This document shows, in pieces, positions 577 through 23,108 of a DNA stretch of 64,000 nucleotides (the stretch's first letter is position 1; every line of letters starts with the position of its first letter). The position numbers were made by a program, and so were the translations under genes. Below the pieces are notes generated by a model. It ran no database searches. It saw only the letters and a list, made by a program, of their open reading frames with translations, and had not been told where the DNA came from. This DNA is from Escherichia phage C6. The stretch lies in the sequence record MW679410.1. One strand, given 5' to 3'.

Positions 577-1857
577 ATGGCTAAAATTAACGACCTTTTA
601 AAAGAGTCGACCACTACTTCGAGTTCTTCGATTGGTCGTCCAAATTTAGTAGCTTTAACCAGAGCTACGACCAAACTGATTTATACCGACCTTGTAGCTC
701 AGCAGCGTACTAACCAACCTTTGGCTGCTCTATATGGTATCAAATATCTTACAGAAAAAAACGAATTATCTTTCCAGACAGGTGCTACTTATTCTGGTGC
801 AGTATCCGCTAAAGACCGTGCCTCTATCCCAGTTTTCACTGCAGGTGCTGTTTACGCTAAAGATGATTTGTTCCAATTTGAAAACGTAGTTTATAAAGCT
901 TTGGTAGCAACACCATTTGCAGGTGCTACTGGCGATGAATACGAACAACTTCAAGAAGCTATTGTTAAGTTGACTATTCGTATTATGTCCGAAGCCGCAC
1001 TGACTGAGCGTTTTGAAGGCCTCCAGGATGTAGATGTTTCTGAAGCCAAATTCGTCGTTAATAAATGGAACGCTCCAGTTAAATCCCGTAAGTTGAAGAG
1101 TACTGTTACTGTAGAACTGGCTCAAGACCTCGAAGCAAATGGTTTCGATGCCCCTAATTTCTTGGAAGACCTCCTGGCTACTGAAATGGCTGATGAAATC
1201 AACAAAGATATTCTTCAGTCCCTGGTTACGGTTTCCAAGCGTTATAAAGTTGAAGGTTTGTGTGATGACGGCTTAATTGACCTGAGTTATGCTAACTCAC
1301 CGGAAGCTTCTCGCAAGCTTTATGAAATAGTTTGTGAAATGGTTTCTCATATCCAGCGCGCAACCTCTTATACGGCAACTTATGTAGTAGCGAGTACTCG
1401 CGTAGCCGCTGTTCTGGCTGGTTCTGGCTGGTTAAGACATACCCCACAGAACGACAAATATCTTTCTGCAAATGCATACGGATTCCTGGAAAATGGTTTG
1501 CCTGTGTATTGTGATACCAACACGCCAATTGATTATGTTACTGTAGGTGTTAAAGAGGAATTTGGTGGGAAAGAAGCAGTAGGTTCTTTGTTCTATGCGC
1601 CGTATACAGAAGGCCTTGATTTGGCTGACCCTGAACATGTGGGTACATTTAAAGTGGTCGTTGACCCTGAAAGCCTGCAACCATCTATTGCATTAATGGT
1701 TCGTTATGCACTGGCTGCTAACCCTTATACGGTTACTTCCGATGATAAACAAGCCCGTATTATTGATGCGACTAATATGGATTTGATGGCGGGACGTTCT
1801 GATATGTCCGTATTGCTTGGTGTGAAACTTCCTAAAGTTTTGACTGAATTAAACTAA
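577..1857 (+). CDS. 24: capsid vertex protein gp24
   Basis: 426 aa; N-terminus MAKINDLLKESTTT..IGRPNLVALTRATTKLIY and C-terminal half closely match T4 gp24. Confidence 0.95.
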   Translation: MAKINDLLKESTTTSSSSIGRPNLVALTRATTKLIYTDLVAQQRTNQPLAALYGIKYLTEKNELSFQTGATYSGAVSAKDRASIPVFTAGAVYAKDDLFQFENVVYKALVATPFAGATGDEYEQLQEAIVKLTIRIMSEAALTERFEGLQDVDVSEAKFVVNKWNAPVKSRKLKSTVTVELAQDLEANGFDAPNFLEDLLATEMADEINKDILQSLVTVSKRYKVEGLCDDGLIDLSYANSPEASRKLYEIVCEMVSHIQRATSYTATYVVASTRVAAVLAGSGWLRHTPQNDKYLSANAYGFLENGLPVYCDTNTPIDYVTVGVKEEFGGKEAVGSLFYAPYTEGLDLADPEHVGTFKVVVDPESLQPSIALMVRYALAANPYTVTSDDKQARIIDATNMDLMAGRSDMSVLLGVKLPKVLTELN

Positions 1858-13755: not shown

Positions 13756-14708
13756 TGTATACTTTACAAGAATTTCAGAATCAGGCAATTAATATTGACC
13801 TACAAAGGAATAACCTGTTTAGTGTAGTATTTGCTACAGTTCCTTCTTCTAAATCTCAAGCGCTCCTCGACCAGTTCGGTGGAGCTTTATTTAACAATAT
13901 CCCATTGAATACCGATTTGTTTGGTATTACACAAGGAGAGTTGACCCAAGGTGTTACGACATTAGTGACAGCGGGCACTCAGAAGTTGATTCGTAAGTCA
14001 GGTATAAGTAAATATCTGATTGGAGCTATGTCATCCAGGGTTGTGCAGAGCTTACTAGGAGAGTTTGAAGTAGGTACATATCTGATGGATTTTTTCAATA
14101 TGGCTTATCCTACGGCAGGTCTTTTAGTCCACGCCGTTAAAATCCCGGATAATACTTTGAACTATGAAATGGATTTGAACCACAACTCGCCTAATATCAA
14201 AATTACCGGAAGAGAATATTCTCCTCTGGTATTAAGCTTCCGTATGGATTCTGAAGCTGCCAACTACCGTGCTTTTAATGACTGGGTCAATAGTGTTCAA
14301 GACCCAATTACACAATTAAGAGCATTACCTGAGGATGTTGAAGCTGACATTCAAGTCAACCTTCATTCTCGTAATGGATTACCCCATACAGTAGTAATGC
14401 TTAATGGGTGTGTTCCTGTTAGTGTTTCGTCACCGGAATTATCCTACGACGGTGATAACCAAATTGCTTCGTTTGATGTTACATTTGCTTATAGAAGTGT
14501 GCAGACGGGTGCAGTCGGTAAACAGGCGGCTTATGAATGGCTGGAAGATAAAGTCCTTAAAGGAGTGGCGGGCATAAGTGAGAGTAATTCACTGAGTTCT
14601 TCAGTAGCTAAATTAAGCCGACTTTCAGGAGCTTCTAGTGGATTAACAGGATTGGTTAATACATTTGGTGGGCGTGCTATTAATAGTGGAATATCGAGGT
14701 TGCTATAA
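13755..14708 (+). CDS. 54: baseplate tail-tube initiator gp54
   Basis: 317 aa; similarity to T4 gp54; start overlaps gene 48 stop. Confidence 0.9.
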   Translation: MYTLQEFQNQAINIDLQRNNLFSVVFATVPSSKSQALLDQFGGALFNNIPLNTDLFGITQGELTQGVTTLVTAGTQKLIRKSGISKYLIGAMSSRVVQSLLGEFEVGTYLMDFFNMAYPTAGLLVHAVKIPDNTLNYEMDLNHNSPNIKITGREYSPLVLSFRMDSEAANYRAFNDWVNSVQDPITQLRALPEDVEADIQVNLHSRNGLPHTVVMLNGCVPVSVSSPELSYDGDNQIASFDVTFAYRSVQTGAVGKQAAYEWLEDKVLKGVAGISESNSLSSSVAKLSRLSGASSGLTGLVNTFGGRAINSGISRLL

Positions 14709-14710
14709 CA

Positions 14711-14738
14711 AAAAAGGAGAGCGTACGCTCTCCTTTAG
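14711..14738. terminator. bidirectional hairpin ggagagcGTACgctctcc between gene 54 and the minus-strand block
   Basis: Perfect 7-bp stem flanked by A6 and T-run. Confidence 0.6.
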
Positions 14739-14741
14739 GGG

Positions 14742-15032
14742 TTATTTACGGAACGAAATGAAACCTGCTGTGGTCATTAGCGGTTGCTTTTTAACAAACA
14801 CCGTAACTGAAATAGGAGCTTCAGATTCGAGTTGTCCTGTCACTACACCGTTAAAAATGTTTTCGGTTTGTTCTGGATGAGAAAAATTCTCAACAGGTCG
14901 GATATCAAACTGTTTGTCTTCACCGAAAACTCGACGTAATTCATTACCCACTGCACTGTCAAACTCTTCAGAAGCAGGGATAACGTTTTCAACTACCAGT
15001 TCTTGACCATTAAAACGGAATGCAGATTTCAT
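14742..15032 (-). CDS. hypothetical protein downstream of the alt array
   Basis: 96-aa track ORF with GAGGAG SD; occupies the alt.-x position. Confidence 0.5.
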   Translation of the reverse strand: MKSAFRFNGQELVVENVIPASEEFDSAVGNELRRVFGEDKQFDIRPVENFSHPEQTENIFNGVVTGQLESEAPISVTVFVKKQPLMTTAGFISFRK

Positions 15033-15089
15033 AATGTTCTCCTCATGTTTGTGTAAGGTAATAGTACCACATCCTTGTGGTGTTGTAAA

Positions 15090-17213
15090 CTACATTTTGA
15101 ATTTATTTGGCAGAGCAGAGATATCCAAAGATGCAGCAAGGATTTCCATAGCTTCGTTGCTTTCAGAAACGGATTCATTAACCAAGAATTGACTGAATCC
15201 ATGCATCAGGCGAACTTCACCAGTTTCCATCAAATGGTCGCCATCGTAAACAGATTCGCTGAGCTCTGAAGGAGGTGTTACTGTAGCTTCCATAAGATAT
15301 TTGTGAGATACCCTATCATTCATAGCAAAAGCCGCTACTTTATCAACCTTCAACAATAATCCACGCGGAAGGATAATTTCTGCTTCTTCGGCATATTCTG
15401 TAAGGTCACCAGGAGCGATAACTTTAACTGCTTCAGCACCTCGAATAACCATACCAATTTCAGCAATTCTATCCGCAGGACCTTCAGGTGCAATTGGATT
15501 ACCAAACTCGTCTTCTTCCCATTCTACCTCTTCGTCATCGACTTCACCCACATCAGATGAACTACCACTAGCCAATTTAAACAACTCATCAGCGGAGGAT
15601 AAAGAACCTTCACCACCAACAAAAACGGCTTGGTTGTCGAGGGCCATATAATTTTTACCAAATTCACCAAAGATGTTAGGCTTTAATGAGGCTGACACAA
15701 AGTTCTTAAAGTAAAATGTTTTGTTATCGATATTATGACGCAGAATTTTGTATGGCAAATCCTGACCACGATACAAAATAGTACCCTTAGGAAGTTTAAT
15801 ACCCTTAGTAAATGCTGAGTCTAAATCCTTAATCAATTTAATAGCCGTTGTATTGTTTTCGGATTCAGGTTTACCTAAAAGGAACAAGTTCATAGGAGCA
15901 TATTCAGCTGCGCAATATTCAATAATAGCATTGCTTTCGTCTTTGGTTAGGTCCTTAGGTTTAATGAGCTCACCTGAATAAGCATATGCATCACTAATAG
16001 AATCGTTAATTAGTTTATAAACGGCTTCCATAGCGAAAGCAATTCGAGAGGCCTTTTCTGAAGGGGAGCCTTTAAAACGGGTACTCAGGTTATTAACAAT
16101 TTTCTTAATAATATCCAGACTATTGGTTGTATTGATTTGCGAAAGACCGCTTAAAAGTCTATCGACTTCTGTATTAAAAAATGCCATATTATTAGAGTAA
16201 ATTTCAAACCCTTGTTTATCTCTATTAGCATAATTTAGTTTAAATTTACTATCAGTCATTAAAGCGTGCGTGAGAGCAATGGTGTATCTAAAGTTGGCAA
16301 GGTCCTCGCTCTTAGATTTAAACTGAGAAGCCTGGCGCATTTTGGTAATAGCACCTTTTTTAAAGTTCTGACTAATCTGTTCAATACCTTCATTCTCAGG
16401 GCCTTCAGCCGTGTGAACCGGTACAGAAGCTTCAAACTCGTTATAAACCTGCAATTCTTTAGGGGACAAAGTTTCAGGCTCAGCAGTAGAATACTGCGCG
16501 GCTGCTGCCATACGACGCGAAATCTTAGTACGAGTAATGACAGCCTTATCAGTACGTTTTTCTTCAACTTGTGCAATAGATGCCGCTACGGCTTCGACCT
16601 TACTTACGGCCTGGCCGGTTTTCTTAGAAACATACACTTCGCCAACTTTAGACTCAACTTTAGTATAAAGATCGGCATTAATTTCAGGCATACCCTTGAT
16701 ATCTTCAATATTAGCCCCGCGACGTACTAAAAGAACGTAGGTATGTTTTCCGCTGAATTGGAACATGTCGTCAACAACTTTAAACTTACCACCGGTACGG
16801 GCCATAGCCAAACGAGCTAATACGCGCTGAACGGTAGGGCCTTTACCTTTCATTTTCTTAGTAGGGAAACGGAATAAAACCGCGTCCATTTTAAGTTTGT
16901 TTATTTGTTCATATATGGTATCGAAAATGGTGTTCAGTGTACCGAGTGGATCGGTACCCAAACCACCCTTGAGTTCTGCCGGAGCGCCTTTAGCAGATAA
17001 ACTCATTAAGATAACATGGACGTACTTATCGCCCGCCTTAACCATCTTAATAGCGTCGCCTTCAGACGCATAAGATACCATACGTGCTACTAAATTGTCA
17101 TTACCAGGAGCATGTACCGCAAAAATCTGCGGTACGCCTGAGCCAGGTTTAAGATTTGTTACTGGGTAATTTTTTTTATCACTTTTATCAAAAACTTCGT
17201 TTAAATTTTCCAT
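15090..17213 (-). CDS. Alt-like ADP-ribosyltransferase paralog 1 (divergent middle region)
   Basis: 707 aa; N-terminal ~230 aa near-identical to paralogs 2 and 3 and similar to T4 Alt; C-terminal YRGQ / FVSASL / EAEIILPRG motifs; poly-acidic insert. Confidence 0.85.
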   Translation of the reverse strand: MENLNEVFDKSDKKNYPVTNLKPGSGVPQIFAVHAPGNDNLVARMVSYASEGDAIKMVKAGDKYVHVILMSLSAKGAPAELKGGLGTDPLGTLNTIFDTIYEQINKLKMDAVLFRFPTKKMKGKGPTVQRVLARLAMARTGGKFKVVDDMFQFSGKHTYVLLVRRGANIEDIKGMPEINADLYTKVESKVGEVYVSKKTGQAVSKVEAVAASIAQVEEKRTDKAVITRTKISRRMAAAAQYSTAEPETLSPKELQVYNEFEASVPVHTAEGPENEGIEQISQNFKKGAITKMRQASQFKSKSEDLANFRYTIALTHALMTDSKFKLNYANRDKQGFEIYSNNMAFFNTEVDRLLSGLSQINTTNSLDIIKKIVNNLSTRFKGSPSEKASRIAFAMEAVYKLINDSISDAYAYSGELIKPKDLTKDESNAIIEYCAAEYAPMNLFLLGKPESENNTTAIKLIKDLDSAFTKGIKLPKGTILYRGQDLPYKILRHNIDNKTFYFKNFVSASLKPNIFGEFGKNYMALDNQAVFVGGEGSLSSADELFKLASGSSSDVGEVDDEEVEWEEDEFGNPIAPEGPADRIAEIGMVIRGAEAVKVIAPGDLTEYAEEAEIILPRGLLLKVDKVAAFAMNDRVSHKYLMEATVTPPSELSESVYDGDHLMETGEVRLMHGFSQFLVNESVSESNEAMEILAASLDISALPNKFKM

Positions 17214-17216
17214 TAT

Positions 17217-19262
17217 TTACCCTTGGGTGAATTTTTCTGGGATTTCGTCAAAATTAATACATGAAGCCAAAAGAGGCATTATATCCACCTTGGTCGATTT
17301 GACAAATGAATCAAAAGACACAGGGTTGTCGGTCTCTGTTTCTACGCCTTGGTAAACAACCAATTCGCCGGTTTCCATCAATGCATCACCATCATAGATA
17401 ACCGCATTTTCTGCTAGTTGGTCTGTGGTCTGGATATCAGCTTCCAATAATTTGGTGTTGTAGTTTCCTTTATATGAGGCATCTGTAATTTTAGTAATCT
17501 TAACAGTAGTTCCACGTGGAAGAATAACCTCTTGTTCTGTTGGAGAACCTGACAATTCACCGGGCACAATTACGTTAATAGAGTCTGCACCGGAAATTTT
17601 CCAACCGATGTTCATCATTGTATTTTCGGAACTCGTCAGCATACTTGGAAGAACAATTTCATTATCGCCTTGGAAAGATGTCCCAACGCGATAGTCCTGA
17701 TGAACTGCGGCCATTGCGACGTTTGATACCCAGCCGCCAAAGATAATCGGCTTAAGGGACGTTGATACATAGTTCCTGAAATAAAACAATTTTGAGTGTT
17801 TGATTTTATCAAAAGTGTTAACATTTAAATATTGACCACGCCAAAGTGTAATATCAGGTGGCAATTTATGGCCAATTTCAAATGCCGCATCCATATCATT
17901 AATTACTTCAATTACGCGATAACTATCAATAAATTCTGCATCCTCTTCATAATAATTACCCAACAAATAATTATTAACATCGGTATAATATTGGCCGCAA
18001 TAAGAAGAAATAGCCTCACGCTGCTCATACTCAAATCGATTATCGCTATAACTGGCTGTAAAATGCATAACACTTTCTGACGCTTCATTAGCAAAATCGG
18101 TAACAGCAGCACTTATACGTTGAGCATACTCTTGTTCCCAAAGCTCTGCCGCATATTCGGCCGCATCCATATTAGGAGGAGCCTCATTCATTTTTCTTTC
18201 GATAAATGCAGCTTTGCGAAGGTTAAGAACCTCTGCACATGATTCGGCAAAAATCTGCATCTGCTTCATACTGCCGACAGGAGCACGTTTAAGTTCACGA
18301 TGCATACGGTTAAAAATTGGGTCAGAGTCTTCGACTCGAATTTCTTCTTTCCAAACACCGTTTGCTCGCATAGCCATATCTGCCGCGCGCATACGCTCCA
18401 TAGTATTCGTTTCAGAAGGTTGAATAAAAATTTCTAGTTCTTCATAATCGTCGATAAGTTCCGCTGTTGCTGGGGCACTAAATTTTGATGCCTCTGCATC
18501 AATCTCATTCCAACCTTCCGGAACTTCATCTCGAGGAGAATACTGGGCTGCGGCTACAGCACGCCTAGAAATCTTGGTAGTAGTAATAACGGCCTTATCC
18601 GTACGTTTTTCTTCGACTGCCGCTATACTAGCAGATAGTGCTTCTATTTTGGTTACCGATTGGCCTGTTTTCTTGGATACATAAACCTCACCAACTTTAG
18701 ACTCAACCTTAGTGTAAAGGTCTGCATCAATTTCAGGCATACCTTTTATGTCCTCAATATTAGCTTGTTTACGAACCAGTAAAACGTATGTATGTTTGCC
18801 TGTAAATTGATACATATCATCGACAACTTTAAACTTGCCGCCAGTACGAGCCATCGCCAAACGTGCCAATACACGTTGAACAGTAGGACCCTTACCTTTC
18901 ATTTTCTTGGTAGGGAACCGGAAAAGAACTGCATCCATACGAAGAGCTTTAACTTGTTCGTATACAGTATCGAAAATGGTGTTCAGTGTACCAAGTGGGT
19001 CAGAACCTAACCCGCCTTTCAACTCGGCTGGGGTACCCTTAGCAGACAAACTCATCAAAATAACATGAACATATTTGTCGCCCGGCTTAACCATTTTAAT
19101 AGCGTCTCCTTGAGACGCATAAGATACCATACGAGCAACCAGATTATCATTACCTGGTGCTTGGATAGAGAAAATCTGTGGAATACCGGAACCCGGTTTA
19201 AGATTTGTTACTGGATAGTTTTTAGCGGAATCACTATCAAAAACCTCATTTAAATTTTCCAT
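17217..19262 (-). CDS. Alt-like ADP-ribosyltransferase paralog 2
   Basis: 681 aa; conserved N-terminal module; WRGQ / YVSTSL / EQEVILPRG motifs. Confidence 0.85.
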   Translation of the reverse strand: MENLNEVFDSDSAKNYPVTNLKPGSGIPQIFSIQAPGNDNLVARMVSYASQGDAIKMVKPGDKYVHVILMSLSAKGTPAELKGGLGSDPLGTLNTIFDTVYEQVKALRMDAVLFRFPTKKMKGKGPTVQRVLARLAMARTGGKFKVVDDMYQFTGKHTYVLLVRKQANIEDIKGMPEIDADLYTKVESKVGEVYVSKKTGQSVTKIEALSASIAAVEEKRTDKAVITTTKISRRAVAAAQYSPRDEVPEGWNEIDAEASKFSAPATAELIDDYEELEIFIQPSETNTMERMRAADMAMRANGVWKEEIRVEDSDPIFNRMHRELKRAPVGSMKQMQIFAESCAEVLNLRKAAFIERKMNEAPPNMDAAEYAAELWEQEYAQRISAAVTDFANEASESVMHFTASYSDNRFEYEQREAISSYCGQYYTDVNNYLLGNYYEEDAEFIDSYRVIEVINDMDAAFEIGHKLPPDITLWRGQYLNVNTFDKIKHSKLFYFRNYVSTSLKPIIFGGWVSNVAMAAVHQDYRVGTSFQGDNEIVLPSMLTSSENTMMNIGWKISGADSINVIVPGELSGSPTEQEVILPRGTTVKITKITDASYKGNYNTKLLEADIQTTDQLAENAVIYDGDALMETGELVVYQGVETETDNPVSFDSFVKSTKVDIMPLLASCINFDEIPEKFTQG

Positions 19263-19265
19263 TAT

Positions 19266-21350
19266 TTACCCTTGGATGAATTTTTCTGGGATGTCATAGA
19301 GGTCTATGCATGAAGCCAAAAGAGGCAGTACATCAAACCGTGTAGATTTAACAAATGAATCAAAAGATACAGGGCTTTCGGAAGTATCGAAGTCATCTTG
19401 ATATACGACCAACTCGCCGGTTTCCATTAGTACGTCACCATCATATACCACAGATTCTTGAAGCTCATCTGTTGTCATAACTTCAGCTTGGATGAGTTTT
19501 GTATTACTAGATGTTGTTCCATCATTATTAGAAGCATCTGTTATTTTATTAACTTTGACCATTAATCCACGCGGTAGAATAACTTCGGCTTCAGTTGCTA
19601 TTCCGAGATTTCCTGGATATACTACATTAACTTTATGAGCCCCATCAATAGCCCATCCTATTTGAACTTTAACGTAATCAGGATTTTCCTTATACGCCCT
19701 TATTTCATTAGGGTTAATAGTTATTCCTTCTTCATTTTTATCGACTGTCAATTCATTACGAACTTCCGGTTCTAAAAGACCGATACCAGCGTGTGTAACA
19801 CCAAATCGTCCAAAAATGATAGGGGTTAAAGAAGTAGATACAAAATTTCTGAAATAGAACACTTTATTTTTAACTAGTGCTTCGTATATAGGAGCAGTCA
19901 TACTCTGTGCACGATAAACTGTAATGCCTTCTGGTATACGGTCACCATTTTCAAAAGCAGAATCCAAATTATTAACTGCAGATTCGATATCTTTTTCGCT
20001 CATAACCTCATAGTTCTGAGGATTATAACGTCCTAAAAGAAGATTATTTATGTCTGTATATCCTGAACCACAATATTCTCTGATGCCGCGCTTTTGTGAT
20101 GGGGTATATTTAGAGCCCTCACGAGCAATAGTAATATCGACCATAATACCACCACCCACACCAGCAAAACTATATACACGTTTTTTAATGAACTTGGTCT
20201 TGGCGGCTTTCCACTTCGCATCGGTCAATTCATTCCAGAGGTCGTCAGGTTGGCCTTTACGAGTTTTGTTATGCCGGGCCAGCCATTCACCTTTGTATTC
20301 TTCGAAAACGGTATTAATAGCAGAGGCATATTTTTCTAGAGCTTTAACAGATGTCAAAGGTTCGTTTTTGATGGCCGTAAGAATTTTATCTTTAATTTTC
20401 TCTTGGATTTCACCTATACCGTGAAGAGGAAACATTTTATAATCGTAATGCAATTCTTCAGCAGTGCCTTCAGCCACTATATTAGCAACCTTATTTTTAG
20501 CCGCAGGAGAATTGTTATTAGTAACCATTTCCTGAGCCTCAGGGATTAATGGAACTGTTGCTGGTTTATTAAAATCCGCTGCAGTAGCTTCATATTTCTT
20601 AAACAATTCACTTTCATTACGATAAGATTCCAATGATTGGCTTGCTGCAATAGCACGTCGCGAAATCTTAGTCTTGGTTATAACCATTTTATCAGTGCGA
20701 CGTTCTTCAACCTTAGCAATACTGCCGGCAATAGCAGTTTCTTTAGTAACCTGCACACCTTCTTTTTTGGAAATATAAACTTCACCGACATCAGAATCTA
20801 CCTTAGTGTATAATTCGGAATTAATTCCTGGCATACCTTTGATATCTTCGATATCAGCTTGTTTACGAACTACTAAGATGTAAGTATGTTTACCGGTAAA
20901 TTGGTACATAGCCGGAACTACTTTAAAACGTCCACCAGTTTTCTGTGCTACCAAACGTTGGATAATCCGTTGGACAATAGGTCCTTGTCCTTTCATTTTC
21001 TTGGTAGGAAAACGGAACATCACGGCATCCATACGAAGCTTTTTAACTTGGTCATAAACCACATCAAAAATAGTATTAATCGCATCTACGGGAGTAGGGC
21101 CAAGGCCACCCTTAAGTTCGGCCGGAGTACCTTTAGCTGAAAGGCTCATAAGGATAACGTGGGCATATTTATCACCCATTTTAACTTGTTTAATAGCATC
21201 ACCTTCAGAAGCGTAGGATACCATACGCGCGACCAATTGGGATTCAACGTCTCCAATTTTCCAAATCTGGGGTACTTTAAGTTTAGGGTTCAAGTTTACT
21301 GTAGGCAGAGTGCCTTCGGACTCAAACACTTCATTTAATTGTTCGGTCAT
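19266..21350 (-). CDS. alt: Alt ADP-ribosyltransferase (closest to T4 Alt)
   Basis: 694 aa; collinear similarity to T4 Alt over full length, including KYTPSQKRGIREYCGSGYTDINN, FVSTSL and EAEVILPRGLMVKVNKITDAS. Confidence 0.9.
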   Translation of the reverse strand: MTEQLNEVFESEGTLPTVNLNPKLKVPQIWKIGDVESQLVARMVSYASEGDAIKQVKMGDKYAHVILMSLSAKGTPAELKGGLGPTPVDAINTIFDVVYDQVKKLRMDAVMFRFPTKKMKGQGPIVQRIIQRLVAQKTGGRFKVVPAMYQFTGKHTYILVVRKQADIEDIKGMPGINSELYTKVDSDVGEVYISKKEGVQVTKETAIAGSIAKVEERRTDKMVITKTKISRRAIAASQSLESYRNESELFKKYEATAADFNKPATVPLIPEAQEMVTNNNSPAAKNKVANIVAEGTAEELHYDYKMFPLHGIGEIQEKIKDKILTAIKNEPLTSVKALEKYASAINTVFEEYKGEWLARHNKTRKGQPDDLWNELTDAKWKAAKTKFIKKRVYSFAGVGGGIMVDITIAREGSKYTPSQKRGIREYCGSGYTDINNLLLGRYNPQNYEVMSEKDIESAVNNLDSAFENGDRIPEGITVYRAQSMTAPIYEALVKNKVFYFRNFVSTSLTPIIFGRFGVTHAGIGLLEPEVRNELTVDKNEEGITINPNEIRAYKENPDYVKVQIGWAIDGAHKVNVVYPGNLGIATEAEVILPRGLMVKVNKITDASNNDGTTSSNTKLIQAEVMTTDELQESVVYDGDVLMETGELVVYQDDFDTSESPVSFDSFVKSTRFDVLPLLASCIDLYDIPEKFIQG

Positions 21351-21388
21351 AATAATTCCTCTTTAATAACCTTATTTATGCCAGAAAA

Positions 21389-21400
21389 GGCCCGAAGGCC
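21389..21400 (-). terminator. hairpin ggccCGAAggcc (UUCG loop on minus transcript) upstream of alt
   Basis: Palindromic stem followed by T-run on the minus strand. Confidence 0.4.
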
Positions 21401-21583
21401 TTAAAGTGGTAGCAACGTACGGTATACTTCAAATTTAGGACCCTTTTCATAGCGGTCGAAATTATCTTTAAAATCGGCGAACGCGATTTCATTTTCAAAT
21501 TCAAGGACAATTTGGGACACCGCAGTGGAGACATCGCCACCTTCTTTATATCCAATAACCACGGTTTCTAAATAAACTTTCAT
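21401..21583 (-). CDS. hypothetical small protein
   Basis: Track ORF 21401..21625 overlaps the ligase 3' end; internal ATG (MKVYLETVV...) just past the ligase stop gives 60 aa. Confidence 0.4.
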   Translation of the reverse strand: MKVYLETVVIGYKEGGDVSTAVSQIVLEFENEIAFADFKDNFDRYEKGPKFEVYRTLLPL

Positions 21584-21584
21584 A

Positions 21585-23108
21585 TTATAACCCAGTTTGA
21601 GACCAATCACCGAATACATCTTCAAATGTATCAGCTTCTGTTTTATCGAAACGCCAACCTTTAATAATTGGAAGGAAAATACCTACGGTATCAGTACGTC
21701 CTTTAGAATGAACCCAACCATTACATTCACAGTCGGCAATACGGCCAATCAATTTACCTTCACGAGCTTGTTTCATAAGAAGTTCACGGTCTAAATCAGG
21801 ACGGTCTTCCAATGGAATCAATACCTTTTTACCTGATTTATCTTTCTTATGGGTAGTATCTTTAAAGCCTGAACCACAGTCACTTGTAATTCGACGACAA
21901 CGTGATACCAACTCGACACCACCTAGTTTGTTAGGGTCCTTCGAGTGTTCATAATAACCTACCACTTCTAAAGCAATATCAATTACTTCTTTGAACTTGA
22001 TAAGATTCTTAGAACGGCGGTTTTCCCAGTAGGAGTCCATGTTCTTAAGGATAATACCTTCCAGGCCCTGGTCGACATATTTCTTATAAACGACTTTAGC
22101 TTCTTCAAGATTATTAACCCACTGGTTTTCGATAGCTTCAACACGCGTTGTACCATGCAATACGACATTATGAGCAACCATAAGTTCTAAGGCTGTAAAG
22201 CGTACATCATACTTATCGCCTTTAATTTTACCTTCGGAATATACGACATCCAATGGGACATAATCCCACGCCTGTAATACCATACCAGCGGCTTCGGTCG
22301 GAGTAATAGTTCCTTGAAGAGCCTTGTTAGCCAAGCCGTTTGACGTGGAACGATCGGCGACAGTTTGGAATTCCTTAGCCTTACTTAATTCAGGAAGTTC
22401 CTCATCAAACATACTAAACAAATCATTAGATGCTTTAGGTTCTACCTTAGGAGTATGGTAAACTAATTCGCCGTCAATCATAACACCATTAGGATGGCGT
22501 TGTCGAGCTTCTTCGGTCATGGTCATTAATTCAGCAGCCAAAAGATTAAGCCCTTGATATTCGTTACCACCACGAGTAAGGAATGTCACACCATCGTTAC
22601 GAACTTCAGCAAAACAACGAGCGCCATCAGCTTTTAATTGGGCAAACGCAGGCCATTTAATATTTTTCTTAATCAAAGCTTCATCATAAGAACTAGCCAA
22701 CATCTGCGGTTGTTCAGGGATTAAACCTTTCCAAACCTTGTTAGCAATAGAAATTGATGCACCACATTCAAGGTCACGCATCATTACACGACGTAATACC
22801 TCGGCATCTTGTCCCTTAGCATCAGCAATGATTTGAGCCAGTTCTTCAATAGCTGCATTACCCGTAATCTTACGTGTGGCTAATGTGAATTCAGCGAAAT
22901 CAAGAAGGTCTTCAAGAGTAATCATACCAAAGGATTGAGACGTAAATCCAGGTTCCGGCCACTTTTTAATGCCATAGTTCAAACGACGAGTATAAGCCAT
23001 ACGATAAACACGTTTCAGAAGCTCATTGTCCTTTTCACGAGCAATAATAGCTTCTTTAGCTTTAGTAGAATCAATAGCAGCAATTTCGTTTAAAATATCT
23101 AAAATCAT
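21585..23108 (-). CDS. 30: ATP-dependent DNA ligase
   Basis: 507 aa; MILDILNEIAAIDSTKAKEA..., adenylation motif region FAQLKADGARCFAEVR (active-site Lys), strong match to T4 ligase. Confidence 0.95.
   Translation of the reverse strand: MILDILNEIAAIDSTKAKEAIIAREKDNELLKRVYRMAYTRRLNYGIKKWPEPGFTSQSFGMITLEDLLDFAEFTLATRKITGNAAIEELAQIIADAKGQDAEVLRRVMMRDLECGASISIANKVWKGLIPEQPQMLASSYDEALIKKNIKWPAFAQLKADGARCFAEVRNDGVTFLTRGGNEYQGLNLLAAELMTMTEEARQRHPNGVMIDGELVYHTPKVEPKASNDLFSMFDEELPELSKAKEFQTVADRSTSNGLANKALQGTITPTEAAGMVLQAWDYVPLDVVYSEGKIKGDKYDVRFTALELMVAHNVVLHGTTRVEAIENQWVNNLEEAKVVYKKYVDQGLEGIILKNMDSYWENRRSKNLIKFKEVIDIALEVVGYYEHSKDPNKLGGVELVSRCRRITSDCGSGFKDTTHKKDKSGKKVLIPLEDRPDLDRELLMKQAREGKLIGRIADCECNGWVHSKGRTDTVGIFLPIIKGWRFDKTEADTFEDVFGDWSQTGL

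Follow-up and report, generated by a model that had tools for sequence, protein, structure and literature searches.

Three tandem Alt-family ADP-ribosyltransferase genes in Escherichia phage C6 and the mosaic make-up of their products

Does a T-even phage with three alt genes in tandem deliver one enzyme three times, or three enzymes that differ in what they modify? The question is raised by positions 15090-21350 of a stretch of 64,000 nt from Escherichia phage C6 (MW679410.1; the whole stretch is called here the window). This is a Dhakavirus-type T-even coliphage, whose 6.4-kb alt region is 97.5% identical to that of fDHCT2 and 96-97% identical to those of QL01 and MX01. In T4, Alt mono-ADP-ribosylates proteins specifically at arginine; it enters the prohead core, undergoes trimming by gp21 and reaches the cell with the injected DNA. 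We consider it likely that the whole package holds for the window, that is, three Alt enzymes with mosaic cassettes, packaged and with differing targets. Its family-membership and mosaic parts are near-certain, and the presence of three delivered enzymes with different targets, which the sequences suggest, has an even to good chance of being right.

Public Dhakavirus records (QL01, MX01, AnYang, KIT01, fDHCT2 and others) already carry the triple array, under the name 'Alt-like RNA polymerase ADP-ribosyltransferase (x3)'. Neither the family nor the locus nor the multi-copy arrays are new; all have been annotated before, and the T4 record itself notes an old alt duplication. We found no description of multi-copy alt arrays or of their mosaicism in the literature searched, a search that was not exhaustive.

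Three full-length members of the T4 Alt family

The three open reading frames (ORFs) of 707, 681 and 694 amino acids (aa) lie head-to-tail, as the first-pass annotation had reported; they are on the minus strand, with gaps of 3 nt and no ORF between them. In the order of transcription they are the following.

19266-21350, minus strand: A3, transcribed first; 694 aa, T2-Alt type, of the three the nearest to T4 Alt.
17217-19262, minus strand: A2, the middle gene; 681 aa, with an A1-like N-module, a VR7/SP18-like cassette and an A3-like C-terminal end.
15090-17213, minus strand: A1, the last gene; 707 aa, of the type common to the T2 'second alt' and ~400 Tequatrovirus records.

It is near-certain that A1, A2 and A3 are full-length, collinear members of the T4 Alt family. 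Each gave one end-to-end high-scoring segment pair with T4 Alt in BLASTP (identity 32% for A1, 37% for A2 and 47% for A3), hence the earlier statement, by which collinearity with T4 Alt was confined to the third copy, was wrong. All three cover the Alt PHROG (phrog_802) from position 1 or 2 to 674 of 674 and match Pfam ADPrib_exo_Tox (PF03496), with expectation values (E) of 2.5e-17 for A1, 6.6e-21 for A2 and 4.9e-36 for A3; PF26846 and PF03496 are both found on homologues of the array proteins. The C-terminal R, SxS and ExE motifs of an ADP-ribosyltransferase (ART), already noticed at first pass, are present in all three copies; order and fold are those expected for the catalytic Arg, the S-x-S and the E-x-E.

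We cut the proteins into segments at conserved landmarks and compared these by Smith-Waterman (SW) alignment with shuffle controls. Each protein is made of five parts: a predicted N-propeptide of 6-7 aa ending in LNE, a basic N-module of ~230 aa, a helical centre of ~175-185 aa, an ART domain of the C3/Vip2 type (R-SxS-ExE), and a predicted acidic C-propeptide of 54-63 aa behind a conserved LxE. The positions of these parts in the window are listed below.

20640-21350, minus strand: A3 N-propeptide MTEQLNE (aa 1-7) and basic N-module (aa 8-237); net charge +12, pLDDT ~70-89 in the structure model described below.
20100-20639, minus strand: A3 central helical domain (aa 238-417), homologous to the T4 Alt and A2 centres; predicted helices 248-409.
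19455-20099, minus strand: A3 ART domain (aa 418-632), with YRAQ479, FVSTS503 and EAE587-589; end LQE-632.
19266-19454, minus strand: A3 predicted C-propeptide (aa 633-694) and stop; net charge -10.
18546-19262, minus strand: A2 N-propeptide MENLNE (aa 1-6) and basic N-module to aa 239; net charge +12.
18027-18545, minus strand: A2 central domain (aa 240-412), a homologue of the A3/T4 type, 82% identical to that of VR7.
17409-18026, minus strand: A2 ART domain (aa 413-618), with WRGQ474, YVSTS498 and EQE576-578; end LAE-618.
17217-17408, minus strand: A2 predicted C-propeptide (aa 619-681) and stop; net charge -9, 67% identical to that of A3.
16497-17213, minus strand: A1 N-propeptide MENLNE and basic N-module to aa 239; net charge +15.
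15942-16496, minus strand: A1 central domain (aa 240-424), predicted all-helical; 46% identical to that of the T2 second alt, with no detectable relationship to other types.
15255-15941, minus strand: A1 ART domain (aa 425-653), with YRGQ481, FVSAS505 and EAE610-612, and a predicted disordered acidic loop at aa 551-580; end LSE-653.
15090-15254, minus strand: A1 predicted C-propeptide (aa 654-707) and stop; net charge -6.

The claimed near-identity of the N-terminal ~230 aa holds for A1 and A2 (87% over ~239 aa) but not for A3, which is 65-69% identical to A1 and A2; the 31-residue sequence that had been quoted as common is exact in A1 and A2 only. To T4 Alt, the N-modules of all three are 41-45% identical. 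The variable central part measures ~173-185 aa instead of ~250 aa, and its being mutually unrelated among the copies holds, as far as sequence can tell, for A1 but not for the pair A2/A3. Precisely, the SW z value was at most 1.1 between A1 and any other centre, 6.3 between A2 and A3, 13 between A2 and T4 Alt and 40 between A3 and T4 Alt. With type-specific profiles, hhalign aligned the A2-type and A3/T4-type centres over their full length (probability 98.4%, E 9e-15) and detected no relationship of the A1-type centre to the other types (probability 0.4%). A Pfam search with the A1 central domain gave no match. An exhaustive HMMER search for its distant relatives, over 1.84 billion representatives, returned six matches, which we judged spurious since all were tandem-repeat proteins sharing a short YTxALTH motif. 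Between landmark segments of the ART domain, identity is 37-42% among the array paralogs and 62% between A3 and T4 Alt.

Structure prediction of the central domains, which had been proposed as a check at first pass, was carried out with AlphaFold2 (AF2) for A1 and A3 and gave an all-helical domain in both. The predicted local distance difference test score (pLDDT) was 71 and 73, and the predicted template modelling score (pTM) 0.56-0.59. The two models have one plan in common, that is an alpha/beta N-module (~aa 18-230), a low-confidence linker at a conserved K(I/V)SRR motif, the all-helical central domain ending in a very long helix, the ART core and a poorly predicted tail. Both contain a disordered loop between SxS and ExE (A1 551-580, A3 516-554). 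The S-A-S variant and the poly-acidic stretch ascribed to one paralog were both located in A1 (707 aa), the stretch GEVDDEEVEWEEDEF being A1 aa 556-570 (window 15504-15548); the models suggest that this acidic insert is an expansion of the hypervariable loop, predicted to be disordered in both modelled paralogs.

Two candidate assignments were considered. Membership of the N-module in GNAT was rejected at the sequence level, as no Pfam or PDB profile of any GNAT matched it even at E ≤ 10; the module has a conserved ELKGGLG loop before a long helix, and the first position of the loop is not Q/R in the window proteins. The reading of the central region as a degenerate second ART of the Vip2 kind was rejected, as the models show there 7-8 helices with only a tiny beta pair. 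The Vip2 profile match reached positions 247-484.

Mosaic cassettes behind lineage-specific N-modules

Segment-wise identity matrices over 19-20 Alt proteins leave practically no doubt that N-modules group by phage lineage and that central/ART cassettes group by type across genera. N-module identity is 65-92% in Dhakavirus (65-87% between co-resident paralogs), 66% in T2, 53-55% in L9-6, and 31-46% between N-types. When the co-resident paralogs of the four multi-copy array types (window/QL01-type, JS10, T2 and L9-6) are taken together, they are 55-87% identical in the N-module, 17-22% in the central part and 32-40% in the ART. Across phages, A2 and VR7 Alt are 40% identical in the N-module, 82% in the central part and 76% in the ART, with up to 94% nt identity in parts. 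The corresponding values are 46, 67 and 95% for A3 and T2 Alt, and 52, 67 and 78% for MY02 and CC31. They are 43, 46 and 53% for A1 and the T2 second alt, with 64% in the C-terminal region, and 99, 33 and 61% for T2 Alt and T4 Alt (L001 11455-13503), with 92% in the C-terminal region.

At the nucleotide level, sliding windows along T4 and T2 Alt gave 96-100% identity to ~aa 235, 40-74% over aa 250-585 and 89-98% from ~aa 600, and the breakpoints of A2 lie at about aa 240 and aa 630. In the ART of A3 and T2 Alt, third-position identity is 0.7-0.87 and synonymous divergence (dS) 0.47. The adjoining N-module has a dS of ~3, and for the flanking genes 48, 54, 30 and alt.-3 of the window third-position identity to T2/T4 is 0.39-0.53. 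Since the ART divergence is this low against both the N-module and the flanking background, the effector part has been horizontally exchanged between genera. The effector cassettes, either central part plus ART or the ART alone, have passed between lineages and landed behind the resident N-module.

The three genes of the window represent old paralog types, A3 corresponding to T2 Alt, A1 to the second alt of T2 and other Tequatroviruses, and A2 to the Alt of VR7/SP18. The A1 central region is found in 445 phage records, 43 of Dhakavirus at ≥95% identity and ~400 of Tequatrovirus at 44-46%. In the latter, which include T2, RB32, RB51 and wV7, it lies in a second alt gene that is intact, occupies the 'alt.-2' position and often goes under the name 'hypothetical protein' or 'alt.-2'. 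T2, for example, has its Alt (L005 2196-4289) and a second, A1-type gene of 685 aa (L005 4293-6350), and the alt.-1/alt.-2 of T4 (L001 11066-11451) is, by T4 annotation and BLASTP, the decayed start of a second alt gene. The A2 central region is found in 46 records, from QL01-group Dhakaviruses, the Gapriverviruses VR7 and SP18 (82%), MN01 and, distantly, EcS1; VR7 and SP18 have no alt gene besides their A2-type one.

Copies of the N-module number 1-3 per genome across 1,201 records, which together hold ~1,800 alt genes, with three only in Dhakaviruses among the rows listed. Dhakavirus arrays have at least three forms, A3-A1 (JS10), A3-A2-A1 (window, QL01) and A4-A3-A1 (WG01, E33). A4 is a fourth type of 631 aa, upstream of A3 (WG01, L017 6908-8803; E33, L016 4908-6803). 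Its N-module is of the Dhakavirus type (61-65% to those of the window) and its central region is peculiar to it (≤24%); it has the motif IFASTS, its ExE reads ETE, and its C-terminus is short, without the YDGDxLMETGE block.

An independent array of two copies occurs in the Biquartavirus Aeromonas phage L9-6 (L012 3171-7048), with no alt.-3 downstream; its two N-modules share 53-55% identity, and ≤45% with any other N-module, and its paralogs are 17% identical in the central part and 35-36% in the ART. Some alt genes are found in pieces: a metagenomic T-even contig (L004 8001-10087) has alt split into ORFs of 371 and 340 aa, the Acinetobacter phages ZZ1 and Henu6 have entries named 'split RNA polymerase ADP-ribosylase', and for Citrobacter phage CF1 there are two entries that cover only part of Alt, 392 and 315 aa long. 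A fusion of the N-module to other cargo was also considered, for which the first homologue search gave three matches; the 371-aa one is a frameshifted ordinary alt, and the candidate was rejected.

Why, then, are the N-modules of one phage alike? In the A1-type gene of WG01, nt 1-270 differ from window A2 at 2 of 270 positions and from window A1 at 62, while nt 361-717 differ at 84 of 357 positions from window A2 and at 9 from window A1. The switch points are at ~nt 150 in E33, nt 250-330 in JS10 and ~nt 60 in QL01. The 5′ ~270 nt of the window A1 N-module are an allele different from that of A2 and from those of the A1 orthologues in WG01 and JS10; WG01, E33 and JS10 have no A2 gene. Such chimeric N-modules would be the expected remains of unequal crossover or conversion between A2 and A1 N-modules, which the near-identity of the two gene junctions also fits.

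19240-19300, minus strand: A3/A2 junction (CCAGAAAAATTCATCCAAGGGTAAATAATGGAAAATTTAAATGA), near-identical to the A2/A1 junction at 17190-17250.

Thus, the sharing of N-modules is best explained by recombination between paralogs, and not by a recent duplication of three whole genes; a packaging constraint is not necessarily involved. Neighbouring paralogs exchange tracts of the N-module or cross over unequally, with a change of copy number as a further result (A3-A1, A3-A2-A1, A4-A3-A1). A recent conversion of the whole module in the window genome was considered and rejected, synonymous sites between its N-modules being saturated (proportion of synonymous differences, pS, 0.69-0.72).

The N-modules could instead be alike because they are fitted to one lineage-specific partner in the prohead core or in ejection, recombination not being the cause. 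The module is under strong purifying selection (ratio of nonsynonymous to synonymous divergence, dN/dS, ~0.05 for A1 vs A2), co-resident paralogs share one N-type in four multi-copy array types, the extra gene of WG01 is also of the Dhakavirus N-type, and both termini of T4 Alt are propeptides whose role is unknown (PMC5694885). A partner of this kind should, however, diverge along with the N-module, and the prohead-core proteins gp20, gp21, gp22, gp23, gp24, gp67 and gp68 of T4, QL01 and VR7 do not track it. VR7 is closer to Dhakavirus than T4 is in gp22 (87 vs 77%), gp23 (97 vs 84%) and gp20 (88 vs 76%), and in all these head proteins but gp21 it is nearer to QL01 than T4 is (VR7-QL01 identity 87-97% for gp20, gp21, gp22, gp23 and gp24, 67% for gp67 and 76% for gp68); yet the N-modules of VR7 and T4 are equally distant (40-44%). 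The chimeric N-modules with their different breakpoints, moreover, show recombination directly. We regard partner fitting as the sole cause as improbable; co-evolution with a partner and recombination between paralogs are compatible, not exclusive.

Expression, delivery and the number of functions

T4 Alt is a non-essential protein of the prohead core, present in ~40 copies (PMC9958956, PMC9026906), and mass spectrometry located the gp21 cuts at ITE-6 and LTE-619, with the loss of 63 C-terminal residues, so that both termini are propeptides (PMC5694885). The N-terminal (L/I)xE site is kept in the array, as LNE-6 in A1 and A2 and LNE-7 in A3. The predicted C-terminal sites that align with LTE-619 are LSE-653 (A1), LAE-618 (A2) and LQE-632 (A3), each then followed by an invariant YDGDxLMETGE block, and the Glu of this LxE is invariant in a 23-sequence alignment. 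The predicted mass of the mature A1, A2 and A3 is about 67-71 kDa.

The array lies between gene 30/alt.1 and alt.-3/gene 54, in the same position as in T4, QL01, JS10, T2, VR7, EcS1 and others compared. As around T4 alt, it is preceded by DNA ligase (gene 30) and alt.1 and followed by alt.-3 and then by genes 54 and 48, which converge with it. The signals and the small gene around the array are listed here.

21385-21400, minus strand: terminator-like GC hairpin with T-run GGCCTTCGGGCCTTTT, after alt.1 and before the array.
21373-21380, minus strand: late-promoter-like box CATAAATA, one mismatch from the T4 box TATAAATA.
15061-15089, minus strand: early-type promoter-like site of alt.-3 (GTTTAC...TGnTAnnAT), also in T4, T2 and VR7.
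14742-15032, minus strand: alt.-3 homologue of 96 aa (DUF5498/phrog_1739), a conserved neighbour downstream of the array.
14713-14736, minus strand: strong terminator-like hairpin (10-bp stem and T-run), downstream of alt.-3, where the alt and gene-54 units converge.

Upstream of A3 the order is alt.1 stop, GC hairpin with T-run, CATAAATA, Shine-Dalgarno (SD) sequence and ATG. The hairpin is kept in T4, T2, VR7, EcS1, APCEc01 and CC31, and the promoter position is occupied by TATAAATA in T4, T2, VR7 and CC31 and by CATAAATA in other Dhakaviruses, EcS1 and APCEc01. Internal late promoters for A2 or A1 were looked for and rejected: no exact TATAAATA occurs within 14700-21700, there is no one-mismatch box directly before A2 or A1, and the one-mismatch late boxes other than that at 21380 are either within the coding part of A3 or upstream of it, in alt.1. 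The simplest reading of these signals is a single late transcription unit, which would encode three full-length proteins of the T4 Alt family. SD-like AAGGG sequences for A2 and A1 lie within the last codons of the preceding gene, CAA GGG TAA (19263-19275 and 17214-17226), so that translation initiation of the next gene may be part of the reason why A3 and A2 both end in a conserved '...QG'.

All three proteins would be made late, built into the prohead core, trimmed at both ends by gp21 and injected, and, through their different central/ART cassettes, each would act on host targets of its own as infection begins. The proposal made at first pass, of virion-delivered enzymes with one shared part and differing effector parts, fits the sequences, which do not amount to proof; it does not stand as regards centres that are all unrelated, and a 'packaging module' role of the N-module is not supported by the present results. 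For T4 internal proteins the sole demonstrated targeting signal is a propeptide of ~10 aa, and reviews call core localisation 'mysterious' (PMC9958956). None of the alternatives considered here or above received more than a small probability.

One of them is that only A3 is packaged, A2 and A1 acting inside the cell like ModA and ModB. A2 and A1 do lack a promoter of their own, and no virion proteomics of a three-copy phage was found in the literature searched. However, ModA and ModB are short and have neither N-module nor propeptides, whereas in A1 and A2 the site of the N-propeptide, the whole of the N-module and, towards the C-terminus, the LxE/YDGDxLMETGE block are all preserved, and both are translationally close-coupled to A3 behind the late-promoter-like box. 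We hold this alternative to be very unlikely.

Little probability also goes to the idea that one copy or more is inactive, mainly A1, as a pseudoenzyme, a decoy or a structural component of the core. A1 has S-A-S in place of S-T-S, an acidic loop, 30 residues long and predicted to be disordered, that separates SxS from ExE, and a Pfam match that is split into two stretches and has the weakest E (2.5e-17). The dN/dS ratio against orthologues is nevertheless 0-0.26 in the N, central and ART parts of all three genes (≤0.37 in the C-propeptides), and that of the A1 ART is ~0 despite S-A-S. Hence none of the three genes is decaying, and all are under strong purifying selection.

The same values bear on the question asked at the outset, namely whether the three are duplicates that do the job of T4 Alt (ADP-ribosylation of Arg265 in the alpha subunit of RNA polymerase and of the same bystander proteins) and simply raise the injected dose. 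All three have the same catalytic motifs and architecture, and T4 Alt is known as promiscuous (Depping 2005, as cited in PMC5512222). But dosage copies would be expected to stay similar or to decay, and here identity is as low as 32-40% in the ART domains and 17-22% in the central parts, with each type kept across genera under purifying selection, as expected for distinct functions. An effect of dosage or redundancy therefore appears rather unlikely to us, and distinct targets for the three enzymes are the preferred reading.

Several points weigh against this preferred reading. The virion presence, the cleavage and the enzymatic activity of A1-A3 are deduced from sequence, the late-promoter box of the array (CATAAATA) carries one mismatch, and the AF2 models have moderate confidence and come from shallow alignments of 22-23 sequences. 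Given the pS saturation (0.69-0.72), the exchanges between N-modules are deduced from comparison between phages and do not show up as recent ones in the window genome. Finally, the VR7 N-module is only 40-44% identical to those of Dhakavirus despite head proteins at 67-97%, a divergence that these proteins do not match.

Outside the array, C-terminal extension mutations of Alt.-3 allow T4 to escape from the CmdTAC defence system (PMC11618068). Another tandem paralog pair of this phage group is represented in the window by a 426-aa ORF of the Gp23 family (577-1857, plus strand; Pfam E 3.7e-104). By position it is the second of the tandem gp24-like vertex-protein genes 24(1) and 24(2) of QL01 and VR7, and an exact late-promoter box TATAAATA precedes it at 540-547.

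Implications and comparison with known systems

As a tentative generalization, which we think possible and less than probable, the T-even alt locus would be a polymorphic system of ejected effectors, with a conserved delivery frame and interchangeable cassettes that are traded between genera and stacked. The frame would consist of the N-propeptide, the basic and possibly GNAT-like N-module and the acidic C-propeptide, and the cassette of the helical targeting domain and the ART. If this is true, each cassette hits a different host target or defence system, and the content of the array (A3-A1, A3-A2-A1, A4-A3-A1, a single gene, or the T4 remnant) helps to set which hosts or defence repertoires are overcome. 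As for such targets, T4 Alt is reported to modify MazF. The N-module might then be a second, unrecognised functional domain instead of a passive packaging handle.

T4 is also atypical for its genus, most of the Tequatrovirus records matched (~400) carrying an intact, uncharacterised A1-type paralog. Since T4 and T2 differ in their cassette and this second paralog is common, the targets of T4 Alt should not be extrapolated to other T-even phages, therapeutic ones included. The natural chimeras delimit the exchangeable effector part, from about aa 240 to about aa 600-630, while the termini and the N-module stay with the resident phage. Their boundaries provide a concrete plan for tests of Alt targeting to the prohead core, which T4 head reviews still leave open, and they suggest a route to engineered protein delivery by T-even phages.

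Among known systems, binary toxins (Vip2, iota Ia, CPILE-a, C2I) have a degenerate ART-like domain before the active one, whereas the pre-ART region of Alt is all-helical in the models of A1 and A3, and neither model has another ART-like alpha/beta domain ahead of the active one. With polymorphic toxins (Rhs/CDI, MuF-fused effectors, polyvalent proteins) the array proteins share a conserved N-terminal part and recombining C-terminal cassettes, alternative copies that stand in tandem, and 'orphan' remnants that have decayed, such as T4 alt.-1/alt.-2. They differ in having no MuF domain, in that alt genes are whole and in tandem instead of displaced C-terminal tips, and in that no immunity gene was identified directly downstream of each alt cassette, the gaps being of 3 nt and alt.-3 being single with its own early-type promoter. 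This comparison is an analogy, not membership.

The T4 internal proteins IPI-III are head-core cargo with a short N-propeptide, the capsid targeting sequence (CTS), that gp21 cuts after (L/I)xE, and they are injected; the Alt array resembles them as far as its genes tell. Their repertoire varies between related phages, as do alt cassettes. The internal proteins are small, and a CTS of 10 aa suffices for their targeting, whereas the Alt proteins add a 230-aa N-module and a C-propeptide.

Closer relatives are found gene by gene. A2 has the same cassette as the Alt of VR7/SP18, with a Dhakavirus-type N-module (87% to A1) and A3-like last ~60 residues. A1 is the Dhakavirus counterpart of the second alt of T2, RB32 and RB51, in the same slot next to alt.-3, and differs in its N-module, which is of another lineage type (43%), in its S-A-S and in its longer acidic loop; in T4 nothing but two short ORFs is left in this slot, where an alt start has decayed. 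With T4 Alt the array shares the family from end to end, the locus, R/SxS/ExE, the positions of the putative gp21 sites at both ends, and the upstream arrangement of a hairpin and a late-promoter-like box. The cassette of T4 itself is found in none of the three copies: the ART of A3 is 95% identical to that of T2 Alt and 59-62% to that of T4, and the centre of A1 has no detectable similarity to that of T4 Alt. Where T4 has one copy and a decayed remnant, the window has three intact copies.

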